From an uncultured Candidatus Saccharibacteria bacterium (GTDB lineage Bacteria > Patescibacteriota > Doudnabacteria > UBA920 > 2-01-FULL-46-14): a stretch of 64,000 nucleotides of DNA. Numbering within the stretch: position 1 is the stretch's first letter; each line of letters opens with the position of its first letter. The stretch lies in the NCBI GenBank assembly GCA_964565195.1, contig CAZMCQ010000004.1:64133-128132 (forward strand), given 5' to 3'. Made by a program: the position numbers and the translations under genes. The notes below the pieces were generated by a model. That model was not told where the DNA came from and searched no databases. It worked only from the letters and a program-made list of their open reading frames with translations. This document shows positions 1,548-10,544 of the stretch, piece after piece.

Positions 1548-2033
1548 ATGCCAAGGAAGTCAAGATTATATAAACGTCATAAGATCGCTCCTGACCCGCG
1601 CTACAACAACGCCAAAGTAGCGAAGTTTATCAACCACATTATGGAGCGCGGCAAAAAGACGGTCGCACAAAGAATCGTTTACAGCGCTTTTGATTACATC
1701 AAAGAGCAGCTCAAAACCGAGCCGCGCCAGATTTTTGATGCGGCCCTCAAAAACGCGAGCCCCATTCTGGAAGTGAAAAGCCGCCGCATCGGCGGCGCCA
1801 ACTACCAGGTGCCGCTGGAGGTTGTCGAGCCGCGCAAAACCACGCTTGGCATGCGCTGGCTGATTGGCGCCGCGAGGAGCAAAAAAGGCAAAGCGATGCA
1901 TTTGAAACTGGCCGAAGAGATCATGGCTGCTGCGAAAAACGAGGGTGGGGCGATTAAAAAGAAAGAAGATACCCATCGCATGGCCGAGGCCAATCGCGCC
2001 TTTGCCCATTTCGCGCGGTTCTCAAGAAGGTAG
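1548..2033 (+). CDS. rpsG: 30S ribosomal protein S7
   Basis: [21 protein letters not shown]... with the S7 signature and ...ANRAFAHF end. Stop TAG at 2031-2033. Confidence 0.95.
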
Positions 2034-2066
2034 TACGAACTACGAACAATTACGAATCTACGAACA
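2034..2066 (+). repeat. TACGAAC tandem repeat element, copy 1 (GTACGAAC-TACGAAC-AAT-TACGAATCTACGAAC)
   Basis: Fills the rpsG stop to fusA ATG spacer exactly. Contains the 10-mer TACGAATCTA shared with 13374-13383 and 54623-54632, and inverted at 54688-54697. Confidence 0.7.
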
Positions 2067-2067
2067 G

Positions 2068-4182
2068 ATGACAAGAGAAATTCCTATCGAACAGACGAGA
2101 AACATCGGGATTATTGCCCACATTGACGCCGGCAAAACTACTGTGACGGAAGGTATTTTGTATAACACTGGTTTGAAGCACACGATTGGCCTGGTGCACG
2201 AGGGCGAGACGACCACGGATTGGATGGAGCAGGAGCGGGAGCGCGGCATCACCATTACGGCCGCGGCCGTAACCTGCTACTGGAACCCTTCGGCGGGCTC
2301 GGGGCAGAAGCACAAGATCAATATCATTGATACGCCCGGCCACGTGGACTTCACAGTCGAGGTCGAGCGCTCCCTGCGCGTGCTCGACGGCGCGGTCGTG
2401 GTTTTCGACGGCAAGATGGGGGTGGAGCCGCAGAGCGAGACAGTCTGGCGGCAGGCCGACAAATACCACGTGCCGCGCTTGTGCTTCATCAACAAGATCA
2501 ACCAGACGGGCGGCGATTTTTATAAAAGCCTGGACTCCATTCACCGCCGGCTTTCAGTCGATGCCTTCCCCATTCAACTGCCGATCGGTTTTGAAAAAGA
2601 TGTCTCGGGCTTTGCGGATCTCGTGCAGATGAAGGCCTATACTTACAAAGATTATACCGATAGAGATTTCACGGTCGGCGAGATTCCAGCTGACCTGAAA
2701 TCTCGCGCCGAAGAGTATCGCCGCAAGCTTTTGGAAAAAGTCGTGGAGAGCGATGACGCTATTTTGGAGAAATATTTGGCTGGTCAGGAGATCTCGGAAG
2801 CGGAATTTCTCACAGCCATCCGCAAGTCGGTGATGGGCGGGAAGTTCTTCCCGGTGCTCGGCGGCGATGGGCGCGGCGTGATCGTGCAGAGTATTCTCGA
2901 CGCCGTCGCCAACTTTTTGCCATCCCCGCTCGATCGCGGCGCGGTGAAAGGCAGCGAGCCGAAAACCGGCGCTGAAATCGAGCGCAAACCCGATGACGGC
3001 GAGCCGTTCTCGGCCCTCGCCTTCAAGATCGCCACTGACCCGTTTGTCGGCAAACTGGCGTTTTTCCGTGTTTATTCTGGCACACTCGCCGCCGGCTCTT
3101 ATGTCTTAAATACCCGCAGCGGCAACAAAGAGCGCGTCGGCCGCATCGTGCGTATGCATGCCAATGACCGCCAGGAAGTGAAGGAGGTCTTTGCCGGCGA
3201 CATTGCCGCGCTGGTTGGTCCGAAGGATACATTTACTGGTGATACGCTTTGCGACGTGGACAAGCCCATAATTTTGGAAACCATTATCTTCCCGGAGCCG
3301 GTCATCTCCCAGGCCATTGAGCCCCGGACCAAGGCCGACCAGGAGAAGATGGGGCTAGCACTTCAGAAACTCGGCGAGGAAGACCCGACGTTCCATATCA
3401 AAACCGACGAGGAGACGGCGCAGACCATCATCTCGGGCATGGGTGAGCTGCACCTGGAGATCATCGTGGACCGCATGAAGCGCGAGTTCAAGGTCGAGGC
3501 CAATGTCGGTGCGCCGCAGGTGGCTTACAAAGAGACGTTCAAAAAGACCGTGGAAGTGGAAGGCAAATACATCCGTCAGACCGGCGGCCGCGGCCAGTAC
3601 GGCCACGTCTGGCTGCGCCTCGAGCCGCAGGAGCGAGGGCGCGGCCGCGAGTTTTTGGATGAGATCGTGGGCGGTATCATCCCGCGCGAATACATTCCGG
3701 CCATTCAAAAGGGTATAATGGAAGCGGCGGACAATGGCGTCATTGCCGGCTTTCCGGTCGTGGATTTCAAAGCCGCCGCCTATGACGGCAGCTACCATGA
3801 GGTGGACTCATCCGAGATCGCCTTCAAGATCGCGGCCAGCAAAGCGTTCCAGGAAGGCATGCGCCGCGCCGCGCCGGTCATCCTCGAGCCGATCATGAAA
3901 ATCGAGGTCAACGTGCCCGAGGAATTTATGGGCGATGTCATCGGCGATATTTCCGCCAAGCGCGGCCAGGTGAGGGAGATGCATGAGCGCGGCCGCGCCA
4001 AGGTGATTGACGCCGAGGTGCCGCTGGGCGAGATGTTCGGCTACGCCACGACGATCCGCTCGATGTCCCAGGGCCAGGCCTCCTACACTATGGAATTCTC
4101 GCACTACGCCGAGGTGCCGAAAAGCATTGCCGAGAAGATCATCGGCGAGGGGCAGAAAATCAGAGTCGGGCAGAATAGATAG
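2068..4182 (+). CDS. fusA: elongation factor G
   Basis: [25 protein letters not shown]... with the G-domain motifs [17 protein letters not shown] and NKID. Confidence 0.95.
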
Positions 4183-4203: not shown

Positions 4204-4485
4204 ATGAATCAAAACGAGTATCAAAATTTACTAGCGCTTCTAAAAATAACCGGCGGGAAGTATATCCTCGTCGAAGACGGGCAACCCAAGGCGGTTTTGA
4301 TGAGCTATGAGGAATTTTCTGACCTCGCCGTCCCGCGCATTGCCGGCGAGCTCGCGAACCGCGTGGAACAGATTAACCAGGAGATCACGCACGCCCAAGT
4401 TTTGGATCTGCGCGAGGAGGTGATCGCCGAGCCGGATTTACCCGTAGCCGCAGAAATCACCGTGGAGCCGCTTGACCTGCTCTAG
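4204..4485 (+). CDS. small Phd/YefM-like (antitoxin-fold) protein. Orphan, with no partner toxin seen.
   Basis: ...KYILVEDGQPKAVLMSYEEFSDL... resembles the YefM/Phd N-terminal fold. Inserted between fusA and tuf. Confidence 0.4.
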   Translation: MNQNEYQNLLALLKITGGKYILVEDGQPKAVLMSYEEFSDLAVPRIAGELANRVEQINQEITHAQVLDLREEVIAEPDLPVAAEITVEPLDLL

Positions 4486-4546: not shown

Positions 4547-5731
4547 ATGGCAGTAGGCAAGTTTGAACGCACCAAGCCGCACATCAACGTCGGCACGATC
4601 GGTCACGTGGACCACGGCAAAACGACTTTGACGGCAGCGATTACGCACTTTTTGGCCGGCAAAGGGCTCGCCAAGGAGCGCTCCTATGATTCGATTGACA
4701 ACGCGCCGGAAGAGAAAGAGCGCGGGATCACGATCAACACCTCGCACGTGGAGTACGAAACCGACAAGCGCCACTACGCGCACGTGGACGCGCCGGGACA
4801 CGCGGATTATATCAAAAACATGATCACCGGCGCCGCCCAGATGGATGGCGCAATTCTTGTGGTTTCCGCGGCCGACGGCCCGATGCCGCAGACCCGCGAG
4901 CACATTCTGCTCGCGCGGCAGGTGGGCGTGCCGCACCTCATCGTCTTTTTGAACAAAGTGGACATGGTGGATGACAAGGAGCTCGTTGACCTTGTCGAAG
5001 AGGAGGTCCGCGAACTTTTGAATAAATACGAATACCCGGGCAAAGACATTCCGGTGATCCGCGGCTCGGCTTTGAAAGCCATGGAAAACGACGTGGAAGC
5101 GCTCAAGGGGATTGAAGAGCTGGTGAACAAAATGGATGAGTACTTCCCGGAGCCGGTGCGCGACGTGGACAAGCCGTTCCTGATGCCGATTGAGGACATC
5201 TTCTCGATTGAAGGCCGCGGCACGGTCGTGACCGGCCGCATCGAGCGCGGGATGATCAAAGTCAACGACGAAGTGGAAATTGTCGGCCTCAAGGCAACGG
5301 CCAAAACCGTTGTCACCGGCATCGAGATGTTCAACAAATCGCTTGACGAGGGTCGCGCTGGCGATAATGCCGGCGTGCTCCTGCGCGGCACCAAAAAAGA
5401 AGAAGTGGAGCGCGGCCAGGTTTTGGCCAAACCCGGTTCCATCACGCCGCATGCCGAGTTTGAGGCGGAAGTTTATGTCCTGACCAAAGAGGAAGGTGGC
5501 CGCCACACGGCGTTCTTCACCGGCTACAAACCGCAGTTCTATATCCGTACGACTGACGTGACCGGCGAGGTGACCCTTGCGGCCGGCAAAGAAATGGTGA
5601 TGCCTGGCGACACTGTTTCGGTGACCATCAAACTCATCGCGCCCGTGGCGCTCGAAGAGAAGCAGCGCTTTGCCATCCGCGAGGGCGGCCACACGGTCGG
5701 CGCCGGCGCGGTGACGAAAATCCTCAAATAA
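4547..5731 (+). CDS. tuf: elongation factor Tu
   Basis: [33 protein letters not shown]... with the canonical sequence. Confidence 0.97.
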
Positions 5732-5735
5732 TCGA

Positions 5736-6065
5736 ATGGCCAAAGCAGCGACAGAAGCGCCCTCAACCCGAATCAGGATAAAGATCCGCGCCTATGACCA
5801 CAAACTTATAGACCAAAGCGCGAAGCAAATCGTGGACACCGCCAAGCGCTCGGGCGCGACCATCGCGGGTCCCGTGCCGCTGCCGACCGAGAAGACGAAA
5901 TACACGGTCAATAAATCCACCTTCGTCCACAAGGATTCCCGCGACCAGTTCGAGATGCGCATCCACAAACGGCTCATTGACCTCTCTAACCCTACCCAAA
6001 AAACCATCGATGCCCTGACGAACCTGAATTTACCTGCCGGCGTGGACGTGGAAATTAAGATGTAA
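5736..6065 (+). CDS. rpsJ: 30S ribosomal protein S10
   Basis: ...[30 protein letters not shown]... with the S10 signature. Confidence 0.93.
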
Positions 6066-6070
6066 TAAAT

Positions 6071-6094
6071 AAACCGCCCGCAAGGGCGGTTTTA
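6071..6094 (+). terminator. rho-independent terminator after rpsJ
   Basis: ACCGCCC-gcaa-GGGCGGT followed by TTTT. Confidence 0.75.
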
Positions 6095-6226
6095 AGTTAT
6101 CCACGGCATTAAAACCGCTAGAGCATTTGACTGATAATCATTCGCGCGAATCGGTACATAGCCAGTTTTTGAGCAAAAAATCGAGCGCCGCTGTAAAAGT
6201 CGGCGCTCATTACGGTTTGAGGGTTT

Positions 6227-6255
6227 TTCATCAATTGTCTTCGTTTTGCTATAAT
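6227..6255 (+). promoter_or_regulatory. extended -10 promoter (TGcTATAAT) for the protease cassette
   Basis: TGCTATAAT at 6247-6255 with a weak -35 TTCATC at 17-nt spacing. GGAGG at 6268-6272 lies 5 nt before the ATG at 6278. Confidence 0.5.
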
Positions 6256-6277
6256 ACGAAAAACGACGGAGGTAATT

Positions 6278-6832
6278 ATGAGATATGTTGTCGGTTATGA
6301 CCGGGATTTTGCCACGCAATATTTCAGACGGAGCGTCCTACCCTTGCTCGCGCTGCCGCCATTTAAGGTTATCGCCGATGTGGAGCTGAACTACTTGGCG
6401 AGCAGGTTTGGCGAAGATGTCTGCGTTCCTTTGTATAATGAACTTGCACGCCCCCCGGAGCGGCACGCCATTGAGCTTTTGTTGGATATTAGAAAAGTGA
6501 GAGCGGACCGGCGGCTTAGTCAGATGGCTGAAGGGGCTGCCAACGGACTCCTTTTTTATCAGGGTTTGCCAGCGCGTGGTGGTTTGCGGAAACTTCGTCG
6601 GCTCGACATGAACCGTCGGCAAGTCGCAGTCCTTATCAAGAAACTATACAATCGCGCGGCATTGGCCAAATTTCGTACGAGTGACGAAAAAGGACTTTTC
6701 CACAGACTCAGCGAGCATATCCCCGAGTGGCTCGACCTCTTGTCGCTCATCCCGGGCAACGATTTTGTGGAGGTCCACGAGAGCTCCACGTCGCTACTGT
6801 TCGGGGTATCGCCCTCCACAAAAATCAACTAG
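6278..6832 (+). CDS. hypothetical protein (184 aa), first gene of the cassette inserted into the S10 operon
   Basis: Good SD (GGAGG) and promoter. No recognisable motif. A terminator follows. Confidence 0.55.
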   Translation: MRYVVGYDRDFATQYFRRSVLPLLALPPFKVIADVELNYLASRFGEDVCVPLYNELARPPERHAIELLLDIRKVRADRRLSQMAEGAANGLLFYQGLPARGGLRKLRRLDMNRRQVAVLIKKLYNRAALAKFRTSDEKGLFHRLSEHIPEWLDLLSLIPGNDFVEVHESSTSLLFGVSPSTKIN

Positions 6833-6837
6833 CTTTT

Positions 6838-6890
6838 GACCTTGGACTTTTCGCGCTTTCGGGCGCGGGGAGTCCAGGGTCTCTTTTTTT
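6838..6890 (+). terminator. rho-independent terminator (long GC hairpin + T9)
   Basis: GACCTTGGACT...CGCGC-tttcg-GCGCG...AGTCCAGGGTC followed by TCTTTTTTT. Confidence 0.7.
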
Positions 6891-6915
6891 CAAAAAAGTG
6901 GTAAAATTGATTTAT

Positions 6916-7290
6916 ATGATTATGGACAGACAGGAGTTTGAAAAATTGGTGGGGGAGGCGATTGAGGGGTTGCCGGAGCAGATTCGCGAGAAGATGGACA
7001 ATGTGGCGGTGGTGATTGAGGATTATCCAAAATCCAAACAGGGCGCTCTGCTCGGGCTTTATGAAGGCGTACCTCGGACGAAGCGGGGGCCGGGCTATAC
7101 TCTGGTTTTGCCGGACAAAATTACCATTTTCCAGAAATCCATCGAACAAATCGCCGCTACGCCCGAAGCGATCAGACAACAAGTGCGGCAAACCGTCTGG
7201 CACGAGATCGCGCACCACTTTGGGTTCAGCGAGGAAGGCGTGCAGGATCTCGCCAGGCGAAGGAAGGGCATTTCCCGGGACCGGACTTGA
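6916..7290 (+). CDS. small zincin-like metallopeptidase (HExxH)
   Basis: MDRQEFEKLVGEAIEGLPEQIREKMDNVAVVIEDYP...TVWHEIAHHFGFSEEG, giving a C-terminal HEIAHH motif. The N-terminus is uncertain (ATG at 6916 or 6922). Confidence 0.6.
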   Translation: MIMDRQEFEKLVGEAIEGLPEQIREKMDNVAVVIEDYPKSKQGALLGLYEGVPRTKRGPGYTLVLPDKITIFQKSIEQIAATPEAIRQQVRQTVWHEIAHHFGFSEEGVQDLARRRKGISRDRT

Positions 7291-7350
7291 CATTTTCGCG
7301 CCGCTGCGAGAAAATAGTATTGTAAATAATCATTAAACAAGGAACAAACC

Positions 7351-8118
7351 ATGAAACTTTCCCGAATTTTTGGCATTGCCGCCGTGATGACCCTGCTCGT
7401 CGGCGGTGTGCCGGTGTCTGCCGCTCACTCCTGGGGCAATTATCATTGGGCGCGGACAGCCAATCCCTTCACGCTGAAGCTTGGCGATAATGTTTCTTCT
7501 GCCTGGGATGACCAGTTGGGAGTCGCGTCGGCGGATTGGAGCTTGTCTTCGGTTTTGGATACGCAACTCACCGCCGGGGCAACTAATCCCAAAAACTGCC
7601 GACCGGCGAGCGGACGGGTAGAAGTCTGCAACAGCAAGTACGGCAAAAACGGCTGGCTTGGCGTGGCTTCCATCTGGATTTCCGGCAGCCACATTACCCA
7701 AGGCACGGTGAAGCTTAACGACACCTATTTTAACACGGCCCAATATAACACGCCGGCGTGGAGACAGTTTGTGATGTGTCAGGAGGTTGGCCATACCTTT
7801 GGCCTGGATCATCAGGATGAGAATTTTACCAATGCCAATCTCGGCAGCTGTATGGATTATACTAATGATCCGTCAACCAACCAGCATCCCAACCAGCATG
7901 ACTATGATCAGTTGGAGATAATCTATGAACATTTGGATAGCACCACGACCATTGCCTCCGCCGACCTTTCCAGCCCGGGCAAAGGCAATGATGTCGGTGA
8001 TGATCCGGCAAGCTGGGGGAAAGTTATCAAGCGCTCGGGCGATGGCAAAAGTTCGCTGCATGAAAAAGACCTGGGCCGCGGGGGCAAGGTCTTCACCTTT
8101 GTCATCTGGGCAGAATAA
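7351..8118 (+). CDS. secreted metzincin-like metalloprotease (serralysin/astacin-like motif with a Met-turn)
   Basis: N-terminal signal peptide MKLSRIFGIAAVMTLLVGGVPVSAAHS. The motif QEVGHTFGLDH fits xExxHxxGxxH. The Met-turn-like SCMDY fits SxMxY. Confidence 0.55.
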   Translation: MKLSRIFGIAAVMTLLVGGVPVSAAHSWGNYHWARTANPFTLKLGDNVSSAWDDQLGVASADWSLSSVLDTQLTAGATNPKNCRPASGRVEVCNSKYGKNGWLGVASIWISGSHITQGTVKLNDTYFNTAQYNTPAWRQFVMCQEVGHTFGLDHQDENFTNANLGSCMDYTNDPSTNQHPNQHDYDQLEIIYEHLDSTTTIASADLSSPGKGNDVGDDPASWGKVIKRSGDGKSSLHEKDLGRGGKVFTFVIWAE

Positions 8119-8124
8119 ATCTCT

Positions 8125-8154
8125 AAAAAACCCTGCCAGAGAGCGGGGTTTTTT
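8125..8154 (+). terminator. rho-independent terminator
   Basis: AAAAAA-CCCTGC-cagaga-GCGGGG-TTTTTT. Confidence 0.7.
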
Positions 8155-8160
8155 CAAGGT

Positions 8161-9627
8161 ATGGACATAAAAAAACTTCTCTCGATAGGTATTGTTTTGA
8201 TTTTGGCCGCGGCGGCCTATATCTTTTTGCGACCGGCGAACAACCTCCCGGCGAACAACCTCCTTGGAAAAAACATCGCGATTTACGCCTATACTGTGGC
8301 AGGCAAATCCAATGGGGGAGCGAGCGTGGCCGTGCCCTTTACTATTGACGCTAAGGACAGCGGATTGCTAAATGCCGCGCTTGATTTCAATCACGATGGC
8401 AAAGTCGCGGCAGAAGAATGGGTGGTGCAAAATATCCGGCCGCGTGTCCAGAAAGACGGCCGCAACCTTTTGCATTTTACCCTGCCAGAGGGAATAGCCC
8501 TTGGCGATGACAAGATTGCGGTATTTGTTGCATTGGGGAAAGAGCCACTCACGAATTGGGACGGCACAAAAACAGGCGCGTCTTACCGGCAGACGCGAGC
8601 CAAAATTTCACCAGTCGAGCTGGGCGATGTTCTGGGCTTAAATGTTCCGGGCGCGGGGCCGGATGTGTATCGCGGCAGTAACGGATCGTTTTTGAAGGAA
8701 TTTGCGGGAATCTCCACGGCTCTGGCTGATCCGATTGATGTGCAGTCAGACCTCGAGATCCCGGATTACCCACAGGGCAATATGGAATGCGGCCCGACTT
8801 CGGCCGCGAACAATCTTACTGGACTCGCCGGCGCCAATGGCGCAGGTGATAGATTACCAACCAATCCGCGTGAGATAATTGATGAGCTGAAAACGGATAT
8901 GAATTTCAACAACGGCGTGATTGGGGCTGACAATTTTGTGAATGGCAAAAACGCGTTTACCAGCCGCCACCAGCTGCCGATCACCACGACGGTGATTGAG
9001 CGGCCCTCGGTTCAGGATATCGCGAGCGCCATTCAGAACGGCTGCGCGGTGGAGATGGACCTCGCGTTTGTGGAGGCGGTAAATGGGCGAGCGGGCCGGC
9101 ATGTGGCCAGCCACACGGTCACGGTGACCGGTGTTTACTCTGACGGCGCGGACAAGGCGATTTATGGTGCTGATTCGGCGACGCCTGACGGGGTGGAGAT
9201 CTGGCGCTTCTCTGACCGGGGCCCGAATTTGCAGCTTGGCTATCCTTTATGGGATGGCGCGACTGTGGTGATGCGCATCTTCGTGCAGTGCTGGACGCCG
9301 CCGGCACAACCAGACGAGTCGCGCACCGCGCCGCCGGAAGAACCGGAAGACCAGGCCGGAAGTGGCAAAGCAGTGGAGATGCTCGTGATCAACGGTGTGT
9401 ACTATCCCAAGTACCAATTTCGCGTGGCTAATCCGGATGCATGCGGACAGCCGCATTATCATGCTGCTACGGCTTATGGACTCTCGGGCCGCGATTCGCT
9501 GGAAGTGGTGAGCGCGCCTGATCCCAATCCCAGCGGCTGCGGCTTTGGCGCAGTCGCCGAGGTGCCGGTGGAGACGATTACCATTTCCCACGAACAATCC
9601 CTTGAGCTTGTCAAATACCTCTGGTAG
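8161..9627 (+). CDS. membrane-anchored 488-aa protein with a papain-like (peptidase C39-like) Cys/His domain
   Basis: N-terminal TM segment LLSIGIVLILAAAAYIFL. The segment QGNMECGPTSAANNL resembles the C39 Q....CG.AS catalytic Cys region. The later GRHVASHTVTVTGVY resembles the His block. Confidence 0.4.
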   Translation: MDIKKLLSIGIVLILAAAAYIFLRPANNLPANNLLGKNIAIYAYTVAGKSNGGASVAVPFTIDAKDSGLLNAALDFNHDGKVAAEEWVVQNIRPRVQKDGRNLLHFTLPEGIALGDDKIAVFVALGKEPLTNWDGTKTGASYRQTRAKISPVELGDVLGLNVPGAGPDVYRGSNGSFLKEFAGISTALADPIDVQSDLEIPDYPQGNMECGPTSAANNLTGLAGANGAGDRLPTNPREIIDELKTDMNFNNGVIGADNFVNGKNAFTSRHQLPITTTVIERPSVQDIASAIQNGCAVEMDLAFVEAVNGRAGRHVASHTVTVTGVYSDGADKAIYGADSATPDGVEIWRFSDRGPNLQLGYPLWDGATVVMRIFVQCWTPPAQPDESRTAPPEEPEDQAGSGKAVEMLVINGVYYPKYQFRVANPDACGQPHYHAATAYGLSGRDSLEVVSAPDPNPSGCGFGAVAEVPVETITISHEQSLELVKYLW

Positions 9628-9636
9628 AATACATCC

Positions 9637-9765
9637 ATGATGGGATATGGAAACTTTGGGCAGATGATGGGCGGTGCGGGGTGGTTTGCGGGCCTCACGT
9701 GGCTCGTGGTGCTTATCGACCTCGTGCTGCTTGGCATCTGGCTCTGGAAGCAAATCCAAAAATAA
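9637..9765 (+). CDS. 42-aa Gly-rich hydrophobic peptide MMGYGNFGQMMGG|AGWFAGLTWLVVLIDLVLLGIWLWKQIQK
   Basis: ATG lies 10 nt after the stop of the C39-like gene. There is no SD. It has a double-glycine, then a TM helix, then a KQIQK tail. Below the ORF-track size cutoff. Confidence 0.3.
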   Translation: MMGYGNFGQMMGGAGWFAGLTWLVVLIDLVLLGIWLWKQIQK

Positions 9766-9787
9766 ATTGAGAAAAAATAAATTGAGA
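9761..9787 (+). repeat. 12-bp direct repeat AATAAATTGAGA x2 immediately upstream of the rplC promoter -35
   Basis: Seen directly in the sequence. Confidence 0.5.
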
Positions 9788-9788
9788 T

Positions 9789-9817
9789 TTGACACCCTCC
9801 CCGGGTTGTATTAGAAT
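9789..9817 (+). promoter_or_regulatory. promoter TTGACA-17nt-TAGAAT for rplC and the downstream S10/spc genes
   Basis: -35 at 9789-9794 and -10 at 9812-9817. Confidence 0.55.
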
Positions 9818-9853
9818 TAATCAGGAATTAATTAAATTGTCCTTCGGGACATG

Positions 9854-9919
9854 ATCCGCCGAATCGGCGGATATCGCCGAAGATTCGACTGTATAGCCAG
9901 CGGATCTTGCTGGTTTTTT
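9854..9919 (+). promoter_or_regulatory. structured S10-operon leader: perfect palindrome ATCCGCCG-aat-CGGCGGAT, then hairpin GCCAGC-ggatctt-GCTGG + T6 abutting the rplC start. Attenuator-like.
   Basis: Seen in the sequence. Position analogous to the L4-responsive S10 leader in E. coli. Confidence 0.4.
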
Positions 9920-9926
9920 GTTCAAA

Positions 9927-10544
9927 ATGGCGTTTATATTAGCCAAAAAAGTGAATATGACCCAGGTTTTTACAGACAAAGGAAAAGTCGTTCCCGTGAC
10001 TGTTTTGGCGGCCGGATCAATCAAGGTAAGCGCGGTGAAGACGGCCGAGAAAGACGGCTATAGCGCTGTGCAGGTGAGCTTTGGGAAGAAAAAGCGCGAG
10101 TTTCGCGTGGCTGGCGAGTTTCAGGCCGGGCAGGAGATAAAAGTCTCGGAATTCGCCCCTGGCGAGGTCATTAAAATTTCCGGAGTTTCCAAAGGCCGCG
10201 GCTTTGCGGGCGCGGTGAAGCGGCACGGCTTTCATGGCGCGCCGGCCTCGCACGGACACGATCACCCGCGCGCCGTGGGTTCCATTGGGCACCGCTTCCC
10301 GCAGCACGTGCGGCCCGGCAAGCGCATGGCCGGGCACATGGGCGGGACAGCAGCGACGGTAAAAAATTCCATGATCGTGGCTGTTGATCCGGAGCGCAAC
10401 TTGCTGTTCGTCAAAGGCGGCGTGCCGGGCGCGCCCAACTCGCTGGTCAAGGTGATCACAACCGGGCAGAAAAAAGCTTCGGCCAAGCTGGCAGACTTTG
10501 GCCAAAGCGATGCAAAAAAGGAAAAAACAGATGTCCCAAGTTAA
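9927..10544 (+). CDS. rplC: 50S ribosomal protein L3
   Basis: MAFILAKKVNMTQVFTDKGKVVPVTVL... The TTG at 9918 is an alternative start. Confidence 0.9.
   Translation: MAFILAKKVNMTQVFTDKGKVVPVTVLAAGSIKVSAVKTAEKDGYSAVQVSFGKKKREFRVAGEFQAGQEIKVSEFAPGEVIKISGVSKGRGFAGAVKRHGFHGAPASHGHDHPRAVGSIGHRFPQHVRPGKRMAGHMGGTAATVKNSMIVAVDPERNLLFVKGGVPGAPNSLVKVITTGQKKASAKLADFGQSDAKKEKTDVPS

Follow-up and report, generated by a model that had tools for sequence, protein, structure and literature searches.

The leader of the S10 operon of Escherichia coli controls expression through L4-mediated transcription attenuation and through translational control. In class II bacteriocin and other double-glycine systems with C39 peptidase-ABC exporters, a clan CA cysteine peptidase is found beside a short Gly-Gly open reading frame (ORF), and processing of the double-glycine leader is cytoplasmic. 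Other described proteins relevant here are the metzincins, namely snapalysin (M7), matrix metalloproteinases (MMPs, M10A), serralysins (M10B) and astacins (M12A), the staphopains (C47) together with the Pfam family Peptidase_C39_2, and the Zincin_1/DUF1025 family, for which we know of no demonstrated function. Here we describe a cassette of accessory genes between rpsJ (ribosomal protein S10) and rplC (ribosomal protein L3) in a 64-kb stretch of DNA, hereafter the window, from a groundwater metagenome-assembled genome of Candidatus Doudnabacteria. The cassette encodes an orphan protein (hyp184), a Zincin_1 protein, a metzincin-like protein, a C39_2-like protein and a candidate 42-residue peptide.

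The cassette is a local, lineage-specific variant of gene order that splits no operon, and it probably arose by accretion of native accessory genes, transcribed independently, at a permissive boundary between operons. Genes were located with the ORF list and a Pfam scan, and window coordinates are used throughout. The order on the + strand is fusA (1945-4182), a 93-residue ORF (4204-4485), tuf (4547-5731), rpsJ, the cassette, rplC, rplD and the remaining ribosomal cluster. The distance from rpsJ to rplC is 3,861 nt, and all cassette genes share the strand of the flanking operons. An earlier reading of the bare sequence (the sequence-only reading) had described a gene cassette separating rpsJ from rplC, and every feature that it listed, including the terminators, the extended -10 element and Shine-Dalgarno sequence of hyp184, and the rplC promoter with its structured leader, was found where it had been placed. 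The interval is laid out as follows.

5736-6065, + strand: rpsJ (ribosomal protein S10), matching Pfam Ribosomal_S10 with 130 bits; begins 4 nt past tuf.
6071-6094, + strand: GC-rich, intrinsic-terminator-like hairpin right after rpsJ, AAACCGCCC-GCAA-GGGCGGTTT followed by a short T tail.
6247-6255, + strand: extended -10 element of hyp184, TGCTATAAT, with a GGAGG ribosome-binding site at 6268-6272, both read from the sequence.
6278-6832, + strand: hyp184, 184 residues, an orphan soluble protein with no family match.
6838-6891, + strand: strong terminator-like hairpin after hyp184, 20 pairs and a T-run, from a terminator scan.
6899-6907, + strand: possible extended -10 element ahead of the Zincin_1 gene, TGGTAAAAT, found by inspection.
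6916-7290, + strand: Zincin_1 gene, 124 residues (Pfam PF06262).
7287-7315, + strand: site resembling a promoter, TTGACA-17-GAAAAT (10 of 12 positions), which overlaps the stop codon of Zincin_1 ahead of the metzincin-like gene.
7351-8118, + strand: metzincin-like gene, 255 residues, identified by predicted fold and a signal-like N-terminus.
8125-8154, + strand: terminator-like inverted repeat, AAAAAACCCTGC...GCGGGGTTTTTT, with a T-run, 7 nt ahead of the next start codon.
8161-9627, + strand: C39_2-like gene, 488 residues (Pfam PF13529 and a papain-like fold).
9637-9765, + strand: candidate 42-residue ORF from the ORF list, starting 10 nt past the peptidase stop codon.
9789-9817, + strand: promoter of the rplC operon, TTGACA-17-TAGAAT, 11 of 12 positions, from a promoter scan.
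9824-9926, + strand: inferred rplC leader of about 103 nt, with two hairpins (9838-9851, 9854-9872) and, at 9895-9915, a further one of terminator-like form whose U-run extends to 9921.
9927-10544, + strand: rplC (ribosomal protein L3), Pfam Ribosomal_L3; the ATG call and the N-terminus MAFILAKKVNMTQ agree with relatives.

Two transcription units meet at this junction, with rpsJ as the last gene of the upstream (tuf) unit and rplC as the first gene of the downstream unit. The tuf-rpsJ unit would end at its own terminator (6071-6094), a hairpin that could act in both directions, and the rplC operon would restart at its own sigma-70-type promoter (9789-9817). The latter is one of only two sites in 64 kb that match at least 11 of 12 positions, versus 0.13 expected from shuffles. 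Since the cassette starts only past the terminator of rpsJ and stops short of the rplC promoter, neither unit is interrupted. The sequence-only reading had placed the genes inside the most conserved operon of the genome; this description does not fit a junction at which rpsJ has a terminator of its own and rplC a promoter and leader of its own, and at which the spacers of several relatives also carry a strong promoter.

The same junction was compared in 143 genome and metagenome loci (designated by L numbers) that contain both rpsJ and rplC, and 6-8 kb of flanking sequence were fetched if the contig was long enough. Ranked by S10 identity to the window, the 30 closest loci lie at 66.5-83%, and those at the top of the ranking have Patescibacteria labels. 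The cassette genes are absent from this junction in all 143 relatives within the fetched flank, and the cassette is an insertion relative to every relative compared. The rpsJ-rplC spacer has a median length of 253 nt in the 30 closest relatives (interquartile range 184-333; range 17-536), versus a median of 49 nt in the other 113; Streptomyces spacers measure 13-18 nt. A terminator-like hairpin is present in 26 of 34 spacer sequences (those of 32 relatives and two window pieces), versus 7.3 expected from shuffles, and a promoter matching 11 of 12 positions is located upstream of a 100-300-nt leader in the spacers of L003, L009, L014, L020 and L106. In L003 and L009, a TTGACA-17-TAGAAT or TAAAAT promoter starts directly past the rpsJ stop codon and is followed, about 200 nt on, by a hairpin with a U-run 19-27 nt before rplC, which is the same layout as that of 9789-9926 in the window. 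Other cargo was found at the rpsJ/rplC junction, and additional inserts between tuf and rpsJ, in the following loci.

L017:8328-13116: NAMPT, Nudix and NrtR genes (an NAD-salvage set) between rpsJ and rplC.
L018:471-3122: UbiA, DAGK and HAD genes between rpsJ and rplC.
L030:2822-4075: a Nudix gene between rpsJ and rplC.
L109, about 1924-3600: hypothetical genes between rpsJ and rplC.
L001:1565-3184 and L005:5519-8000: inserts between tuf and rpsJ.

Because of these long spacers, the promoter and hairpin signals within them and the varied cargo, we read the rpsJ/rplC junction as an insertion-tolerant boundary. In the 30 closest relatives the spacers are already long and often equipped with a promoter and a terminator-like hairpin, and the same would apply to the lineage of the window genome. 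Local alignment of the two window spacer pieces (6066-6277 and 9766-9926) with seven relatives remained within the range of shuffles for six of them, while L032 scored above it with the right-hand piece (23 versus a maximum of 21). As the pieces mostly align at the level of shuffles, the ancestral spacer cannot be reconstructed. In an all-against-all blastn comparison of the 34 spacers, only a few closely related pairs align, and outside the hairpin described below the spacers show no conservation of sequence across the family.

The base composition and codon usage of the cassette are native, and it bears no marks of a mobile element. Its GC content is 0.530 versus 0.528 for the window, and its tetranucleotide correlation is 0.892 versus 0.920 +/- 0.032 for other 3.7-kb stretches. 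Codon usage was expressed as synonymous-codon log-likelihood z-scores against 38 non-ribosomal window genes, giving +0.64 for Zincin_1, +0.90 for the metzincin-like gene and +0.23 for the C39_2-like gene; hyp184 is the sole atypical gene of the cassette (z = -2.5). The hyp184 promoter is of the TGnTATAAT extended -10 type, which is over-represented across the window (seven copies in 64 kb versus 0.85 expected). Six of the seven copies (6247, 22148, 29289, 37157, 42155 and 54671) are found just upstream of + strand genes, and the element looks like the usual promoter type of the organism. No flanking direct or inverted repeats surround the cassette; the repeat search yielded short matches of the kind expected by chance and, inside the cassette region, two 15-nt tandem duplications. 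A tRNA scan of the 64-kb window found none, scans with Pfam, NCBIfam, PADLOC and PHROGs found no integrase or transposase among the cassette proteins, and a phage search with three of these proteins gave no match. The sole match in a plasmid search was a Streptomyces homologue of the metzincin-like gene. The named top homologues of that gene are all patescibacterial, and those of the C39_2-like gene have housekeeping genes of small genomes as neighbours. The acquired insertion proposed in the sequence-only reading is thus upheld as an insertion, with none of the 143 relatives having the genes here, but not as an acquisition, and the comparison of GC content and codon usage that had been suggested as a check returned a native-like GC content for the cassette and native-like codon usage for the three peptidase genes. 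A prophage or integrative element was rejected, given the native composition and the lack of an integrase, repeats, a tRNA or a phage match. A toxin-antitoxin or defence island was likewise rejected; scans of the cassette proteins with PADLOC, PHROGs and NCBIfam gave nothing useful.

No linkage between cassette genes was found in the other contexts inspected. Homologues of the C39_2-like, metzincin-like and hyp184 genes stand alone in all 11 contexts inspected (four, six and one, respectively). The four contexts of the C39_2-like gene contain Band_7, pyrophosphatase and NusA, methyltransferase and dockerin, or small unknown genes; the six of the metzincin-like gene, including two other Doudnabacteria genomes, consist of housekeeping genes; and the hyp184 homologue adjoins TspO and a hydrolase in an unrelated context. 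A tblastn search of ten of these contexts with all cassette proteins recovered only the query gene of each locus, and for the eleventh (L180) a table of Pfam matches to its genes was used instead. There is therefore no conserved linkage among the three genes in these contexts, and no evidence that they constitute a module.

Most of the cassette genes would be transcribed independently. The hyp184 gene, whose ATG (6278) is preceded at 5 nt by the GGAGG sequence, would be transcribed from its own extended -10 promoter and end at its own terminator. Zincin_1 may have its own extended -10 element (6899-6907), which, if used, could give a near-leaderless mRNA, and the metzincin-like gene would have its own promoter-like site and terminator. 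The C39_2-like gene and the 42-residue ORF, which have no obvious promoter, probably rely on read-through of the hairpin at 8125-8154. Two of the products probably act as peptidases outside the cell or on its surface. Their role would be one of independent extracellular or surface proteolysis, for example in peptide scavenging or in remodelling the surface of partner cells by a bacterium with a small genome. Neither the cassette nor the inspected contexts of homologues contain evidence for a coordinated pathway of secretion and processing.

The three assignments to peptidase superfamilies made in the sequence-only reading were upheld at the level of fold or profile (PF06262, PF13529 and Foldseek). 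The metzincin-like protein contains a single N-terminal hydrophobic segment in a hydropathy scan, which resembles a signal peptide and ends in VSAA-HS, and export through Sec is predicted from the sequence. It reaches no Pfam cutoff (best match Reprolysin_5, 17.5 bits versus 27) and has no NCBIfam match; similarly, no metallopeptidase family reaches its Pfam cutoff across 31 members of the family (best E-value 1.3e-4). No match was found at E <= 1 to Pfam Peptidase_M11, which we take to be the Volvox/gametolysin family. An AlphaFold (AF2) model computed from 31 homologues has a pLDDT (predicted local distance difference test score) of 82.5. A Foldseek search of the PDB with this model produced 51 matches at E <= 0.001, and all 50 listed are metzincins, comprising snapalysin, MMPs, serralysins, astacins, myroilysin and one metalloproteinase of the adamalysin type from snake venom. 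E-values go down to 5e-6, and target-normalised TM-scores reach 0.6-0.66 for the catalytic domains of snapalysin and MMPs. The modelled fold is that of a metzincin catalytic domain.

The metal-binding helix of this protein is QEVGHTFGLDH (residues 144-154), in which a glutamine replaces the first zinc-binding histidine. Gln144 is invariant in the 31 aligned members; among 266 members with the motif, this position is glutamine in 246 and histidine in 16. The Met-turn is SCMDY (residues 166-170), of which Cys167, Met168, Asp169 and Tyr170 are invariant in the 31 aligned members, and (S/T)CMDY is present in 230 of the 266. The window family therefore resembles the metzincins in its fold, its xExxHxxGxxH helix, its Met-turn followed by a tyrosine and its predicted secretion, but differs from them in the glutamine at the first zinc-binding position and in reaching no Pfam metallopeptidase cutoff. 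The metzincin-like protease of the sequence-only reading accordingly stands with respect to the fold and the signal-like N-terminus; its motif is QEVGHTFGLDH, not HExxH. A QExxHxxGxxH motif has been reported for Volvox VMP3, a copper-preferring matrix metalloproteinase (Heitzer & Hallmann 2002, as cited in bioRxiv 10.1101/2020.06.30.165720), and the window family has this motif variant in common with VMP3.

The family has more than 8,000 homologues, with 63-80% identity to the window protein among those scored, and comprises 2,201 clusters at 50% identity. The named top homologues are all from Patescibacteria, with Doudna-, Pacei-, Yonath-, Nomura-, Azam- and Kaiserbacteria labels. A copy on a Streptomyces mirabilis plasmid (L179:3743-4507) shares 58% sequence identity and the same motif, and adjoins a gene for a MerR-family regulator. 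The family is thus very large, highly conserved and uncharacterised, and lies outside every Pfam model. Regulators of the ArsR/HTH_5 or MerR families, which are commonly metal-responsive, were observed near metzincin-like homologues (L180:6615-6956, L088:11392-11652 and L179:4565-4996) and near the hyp184 homologue (L098:2463-2762). A link to metals is a weak hint from these neighbours, and may be coincidence.

The C39_2-like protein has one N-terminal transmembrane segment in a hydropathy scan and matches Pfam Peptidase_C39_2 (PF13529) marginally, with 28.2 bits versus a cutoff of 24; four of the 11 family members match at E <= 0.01. These 11 are the only homologues among 5.8 billion proteins, and Cys210 and His318 are invariant in the 11 aligned sequences. 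The AF2 model has a pLDDT of 77, and its top Foldseek matches are staphopains (E 2e-5, target-normalised TM-scores 0.58-0.68), followed by papain-family enzymes. The order of domains is an N-terminal transmembrane helix, a β-sandwich with an EF-hand-like loop, the catalytic domain (Cys210, His318) and a C-terminal domain. The protein is thus predicted to be a membrane-anchored cysteine peptidase of the papain fold with an extracytoplasmic catalytic domain. It has in common with the staphopains and Peptidase_C39_2 a papain-like catalytic domain, the invariant Cys210/His318 pair and predicted export, but differs from the staphopains in its membrane anchor, in its additional N- and C-terminal domains and in a sequence identity of only 11-12%. 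The EF-hand-like loop, DxNxDG...E, is found in the N-terminal β-sandwich across the family (window residues 75-86). Additionally, Cys428, His432, His434, Cys460 and Gly461 are invariant in the C-terminal domain (428-463) and may form a metal site.

For hyp184, searches of Pfam, NCBIfam, PADLOC, PHROGs and PDB sequences gave nothing above threshold, with matches at chance level only (E 0.04-1.2). A single homologue with 43% identity was found among 5.8 billion proteins, and this homologue backs the + strand ORF; a wrong-strand ORF was considered and rejected on that ground. The assignment of Zincin_1 is secure. It matches PF06262 over positions 1-95 of the 97 in the profile with 88.7 bits (cutoff 22.4), contains an HExxH motif (HEIAH, residues 96-100) and has no hydrophobic segment in a hydropathy scan. 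It also matches PDB 3e11 (annotated as 'predicted zincin-like metalloprotease') over its full length with an E-value of 1.4e-25. Zincin_1 is therefore a small, cytoplasmic, DUF1025-type zincin-like protein, which resembles the 3e11 protein in full-length match, HExxH motif and small cytoplasmic size and shows no notable difference from it.

Explanations other than accretion were weighed against these data. A chimeric contig, in which assembly or binning had joined ribosomal genes to unrelated DNA, might be suspected, as the source is a metagenome-assembled genome and the right junction, from the 42-residue ORF to rplC, is present only in the NCBI contig. However, Logan assemblies made from four separate sequencing runs of one study (SRR12113383, -84, -85 and -420) contain the same left junction and the same order of genes inside the cassette: the order rpsJ to hyp184 was recovered in all four, and longer Logan contigs extend through the Zincin_1, metzincin-like and C39_2-like genes up to the 42-residue ORF. 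Composition is also uniform over both junctions. The cassette is not an assembly artefact, and the chance that a chimera accounts for it is close to negligible. The sequence-only reading itself favoured an acquired module that serves secretion and processing. Spelled out, the module would have come by horizontal transfer, and its C39-type peptidase would cleave the double-glycine leader of the 42-residue peptide, as in bacteriocin export, with the other proteases as accessories. This proposal draws on the C39_2 profile match, which exceeds the Pfam cutoff, on the absence of the genes from this junction in all relatives compared, and on the position of the 42-residue ORF 10 nt downstream of the peptidase gene; in this ORF residues 12-13 are GG, and a hydrophobic segment with a basic C-terminal end comes next. 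As in the class II systems, a clan CA cysteine peptidase is found beside a short Gly-Gly ORF. The peptidase, however, has no match at E <= 1 to the true C39 family (PF03412), so that the C39-like peptidase of the sequence-only reading is retained for its PF13529 match and single N-terminal transmembrane segment but not as a true C39 member. Its fold is nearest to the secreted staphopains, and none of the 50 Foldseek matches listed is the peptidase domain of a bacteriocin exporter. The peptidase domain is predicted to be outside the cell, behind a single N-terminal transmembrane helix, whereas double-glycine leaders are processed in the cytoplasm, and the interval between rpsJ and rplC, which is flanked by ribosomal genes, contains no gene for an ABC transporter. 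The peptide fares no better as a substrate. Its N-terminus is glycine-rich, and the residues that precede the GG (MMGYGNFGQMM) have neither the leader consensus nor its conserved acidic position. The hydropathy scan shows a hydrophobic segment at residues 12-41, from which a single-pass membrane peptide is predicted. No leader-peptide, bacteriocin or other family was matched in Pfam or NCBIfam, and no homologue was found in 1.27 Mb of fetched loci, nor downstream of the four inspected homologues of the C39_2-like gene, which leaves no conserved pairing; the name of double-glycine peptide given to it is not borne out. Together with the native composition, the lack of mobility genes and repeats, and homologues that stand alone in 11 contexts, these observations make an acquired processing module very unlikely.

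Alternatively, the peptidase genes may have been gathered by selection beside translation genes as a lineage-specific functional island, with read-through from tuf-rpsJ coupling scavenging proteases to growth rate. All genes lie on the strand of the flanking operons, three of the four belong to peptidase superfamilies, and the 'terminators' at 6838-6891 and 8125-8154 stand only 7-30 nt before the next start codon; moreover, some read-through must occur, given that the C39_2-like gene lacks its own promoter. On the other hand, the arrangement is unique to the window genome among everything sampled, the upstream genes end in a strong hairpin with a T-run, most genes have their own promoter-like sites, and the unrelated cargo found at the same junction elsewhere speaks against a coupling under selection and in favour of a site that is merely permissive. 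We consider such an island unlikely. Accretion of native genes at a permissive boundary is preferred, and several points weigh against it. Three peptidase-superfamily genes among four adjacent ones would be expected by chance about 0.1 times per genome if 3% of genes encode peptidases (a rough estimate); given this improbability, some functional clustering in the lineage is possible. Weaker promoter-like sites in the region number five versus 4.5 in shuffles and are thus not in excess, and promoters, terminators and topology are all predicted from sequence. The hairpin and U-run about 10 nt before rplC are unexplained by accretion unless they constitute a regulated attenuator or a weak terminator. 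The linkage result covers the C39_2-like, metzincin-like and hyp184 genes. Finally, the nearest genome shares 83% S10 identity, and a metagenome scan for nearer relatives reached 77% at best, which limits any dating or ordering of the insertions.

The region immediately upstream of rplC was analysed further for regulatory structure. The leader folds with -37.2 kcal/mol (z = -2.54 versus shuffles), and its last hairpin with the U-run (9895-9921) is located downstream of the rplC promoter and about 10 nt before the gene. No Shine-Dalgarno sequence precedes the ATG of rplC, where an A/T-rich stretch is found instead (9916-9929); the same holds, A/T-rich stretch included, for rplC in L002, L003, L009, L012, L014, L022, L024 and L032. 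Nothing in the window reached an Rfam gathering threshold, and a permissive scan of 5950-10050 gave only sub-cutoff matches at chance level (E <= 5). A terminator-like hairpin placed past the promoter and just before rplC suggests attenuation of the kind known from the E. coli S10 leader. The two leaders have in common a promoter, a leader of at least 100 nt and a terminator-like hairpin with a U-run before a long operon that includes rplC and rplD. However, the window leader precedes rplC rather than rpsJ, which belongs to the tuf unit, and it has neither sequence similarity to the E. coli leader nor an Rfam match.

In relatives, the corresponding hairpin is often conserved in sequence. A CUGG...CCAG stem followed by a U-run is present 12-100 nt upstream of rplC in 12 of 32 relatives (L002, L003, L004, L008, L009, L010, L032, L100, L107, L108, L112 and L115). 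The pattern has 13 matches in 10 kb of spacer versus four in 666 kb elsewhere in the same loci, an enrichment of more than 200-fold. In an alignment of 11 of these hairpins, 96% of cells pair; the flanking pairs covary and four pairs are fixed or nearly so. A covariance model built from the hairpin of the relatives (R1) detected further copies in the spacers of L104, L005, L015 and L117, and gave no match to the window at E <= 1. The arms of the window hairpin (9895-9915) are swapped (CCAGC...GCUGG), and it is not a demonstrated member of the CUGG/CCAG motif. The motif may represent an undescribed leader or attenuator of ribosomal protein genes. Tentatively, and with more doubt than confidence, the rpsJ-rplC spacer of Patescibacteria could be seen as an undescribed regulatory region in which a promoter is followed by a 100-300-nt leader with a terminator hairpin just ahead of rplC, and in which an autoregulatory attenuator of the operon beginning with rplC and rplD would act by analogy with S10/L4 in E. 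coli, one gene further downstream. The window cassette would then lie directly upstream of this region, which would explain how genes come to accumulate there. Only for Archaeoglobi is there a proposed candidate L4 leader ahead of rplC (PMC7247131), and our literature search turned up no description of a leader for rplC of Patescibacteria.

Other features of the region were noted. A perfect 15-nt tandem duplication (AAAAATAAATTGAGA twice, 9758-9787) covers the end and stop codon of the 42-residue ORF and reaches to just upstream of the -35 element of rplC. A second one (CCGGCGAACAACCTC twice, 8233-8262) encodes PANNL-PANNL in the linker that follows the transmembrane helix of the C39_2-like protein. 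The acidic 93-residue ORF in the gap between fusA and tuf (4204-4485) has only weak, sub-cutoff matches to Phd/YefM antitoxins (14-15 bits) and is missing from all compared relatives (E <= 1e-4); it is a further lineage-specific insertion in the str-S10 region.

The cassette itself is of little weight, consisting as it does of accessory genes of known superfamilies that are already annotated in the source genome. It illustrates that in these small genomes adjacency to ribosomal genes does not amount to co-function and that S10 and L3 are not tightly linked in one operon, which calls for caution where blocks of ribosomal protein genes are used as anchors for synteny or binning. Two by-products may be weightier. 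One is an uncharacterised family of secreted proteins with a metzincin fold, whose metal site varies in the same way as that of one copper-preferring metalloproteinase described in the account cited above; the other is the sequence-conserved hairpin upstream of rplC in relatives, which is perhaps a new ribosomal-protein leader.

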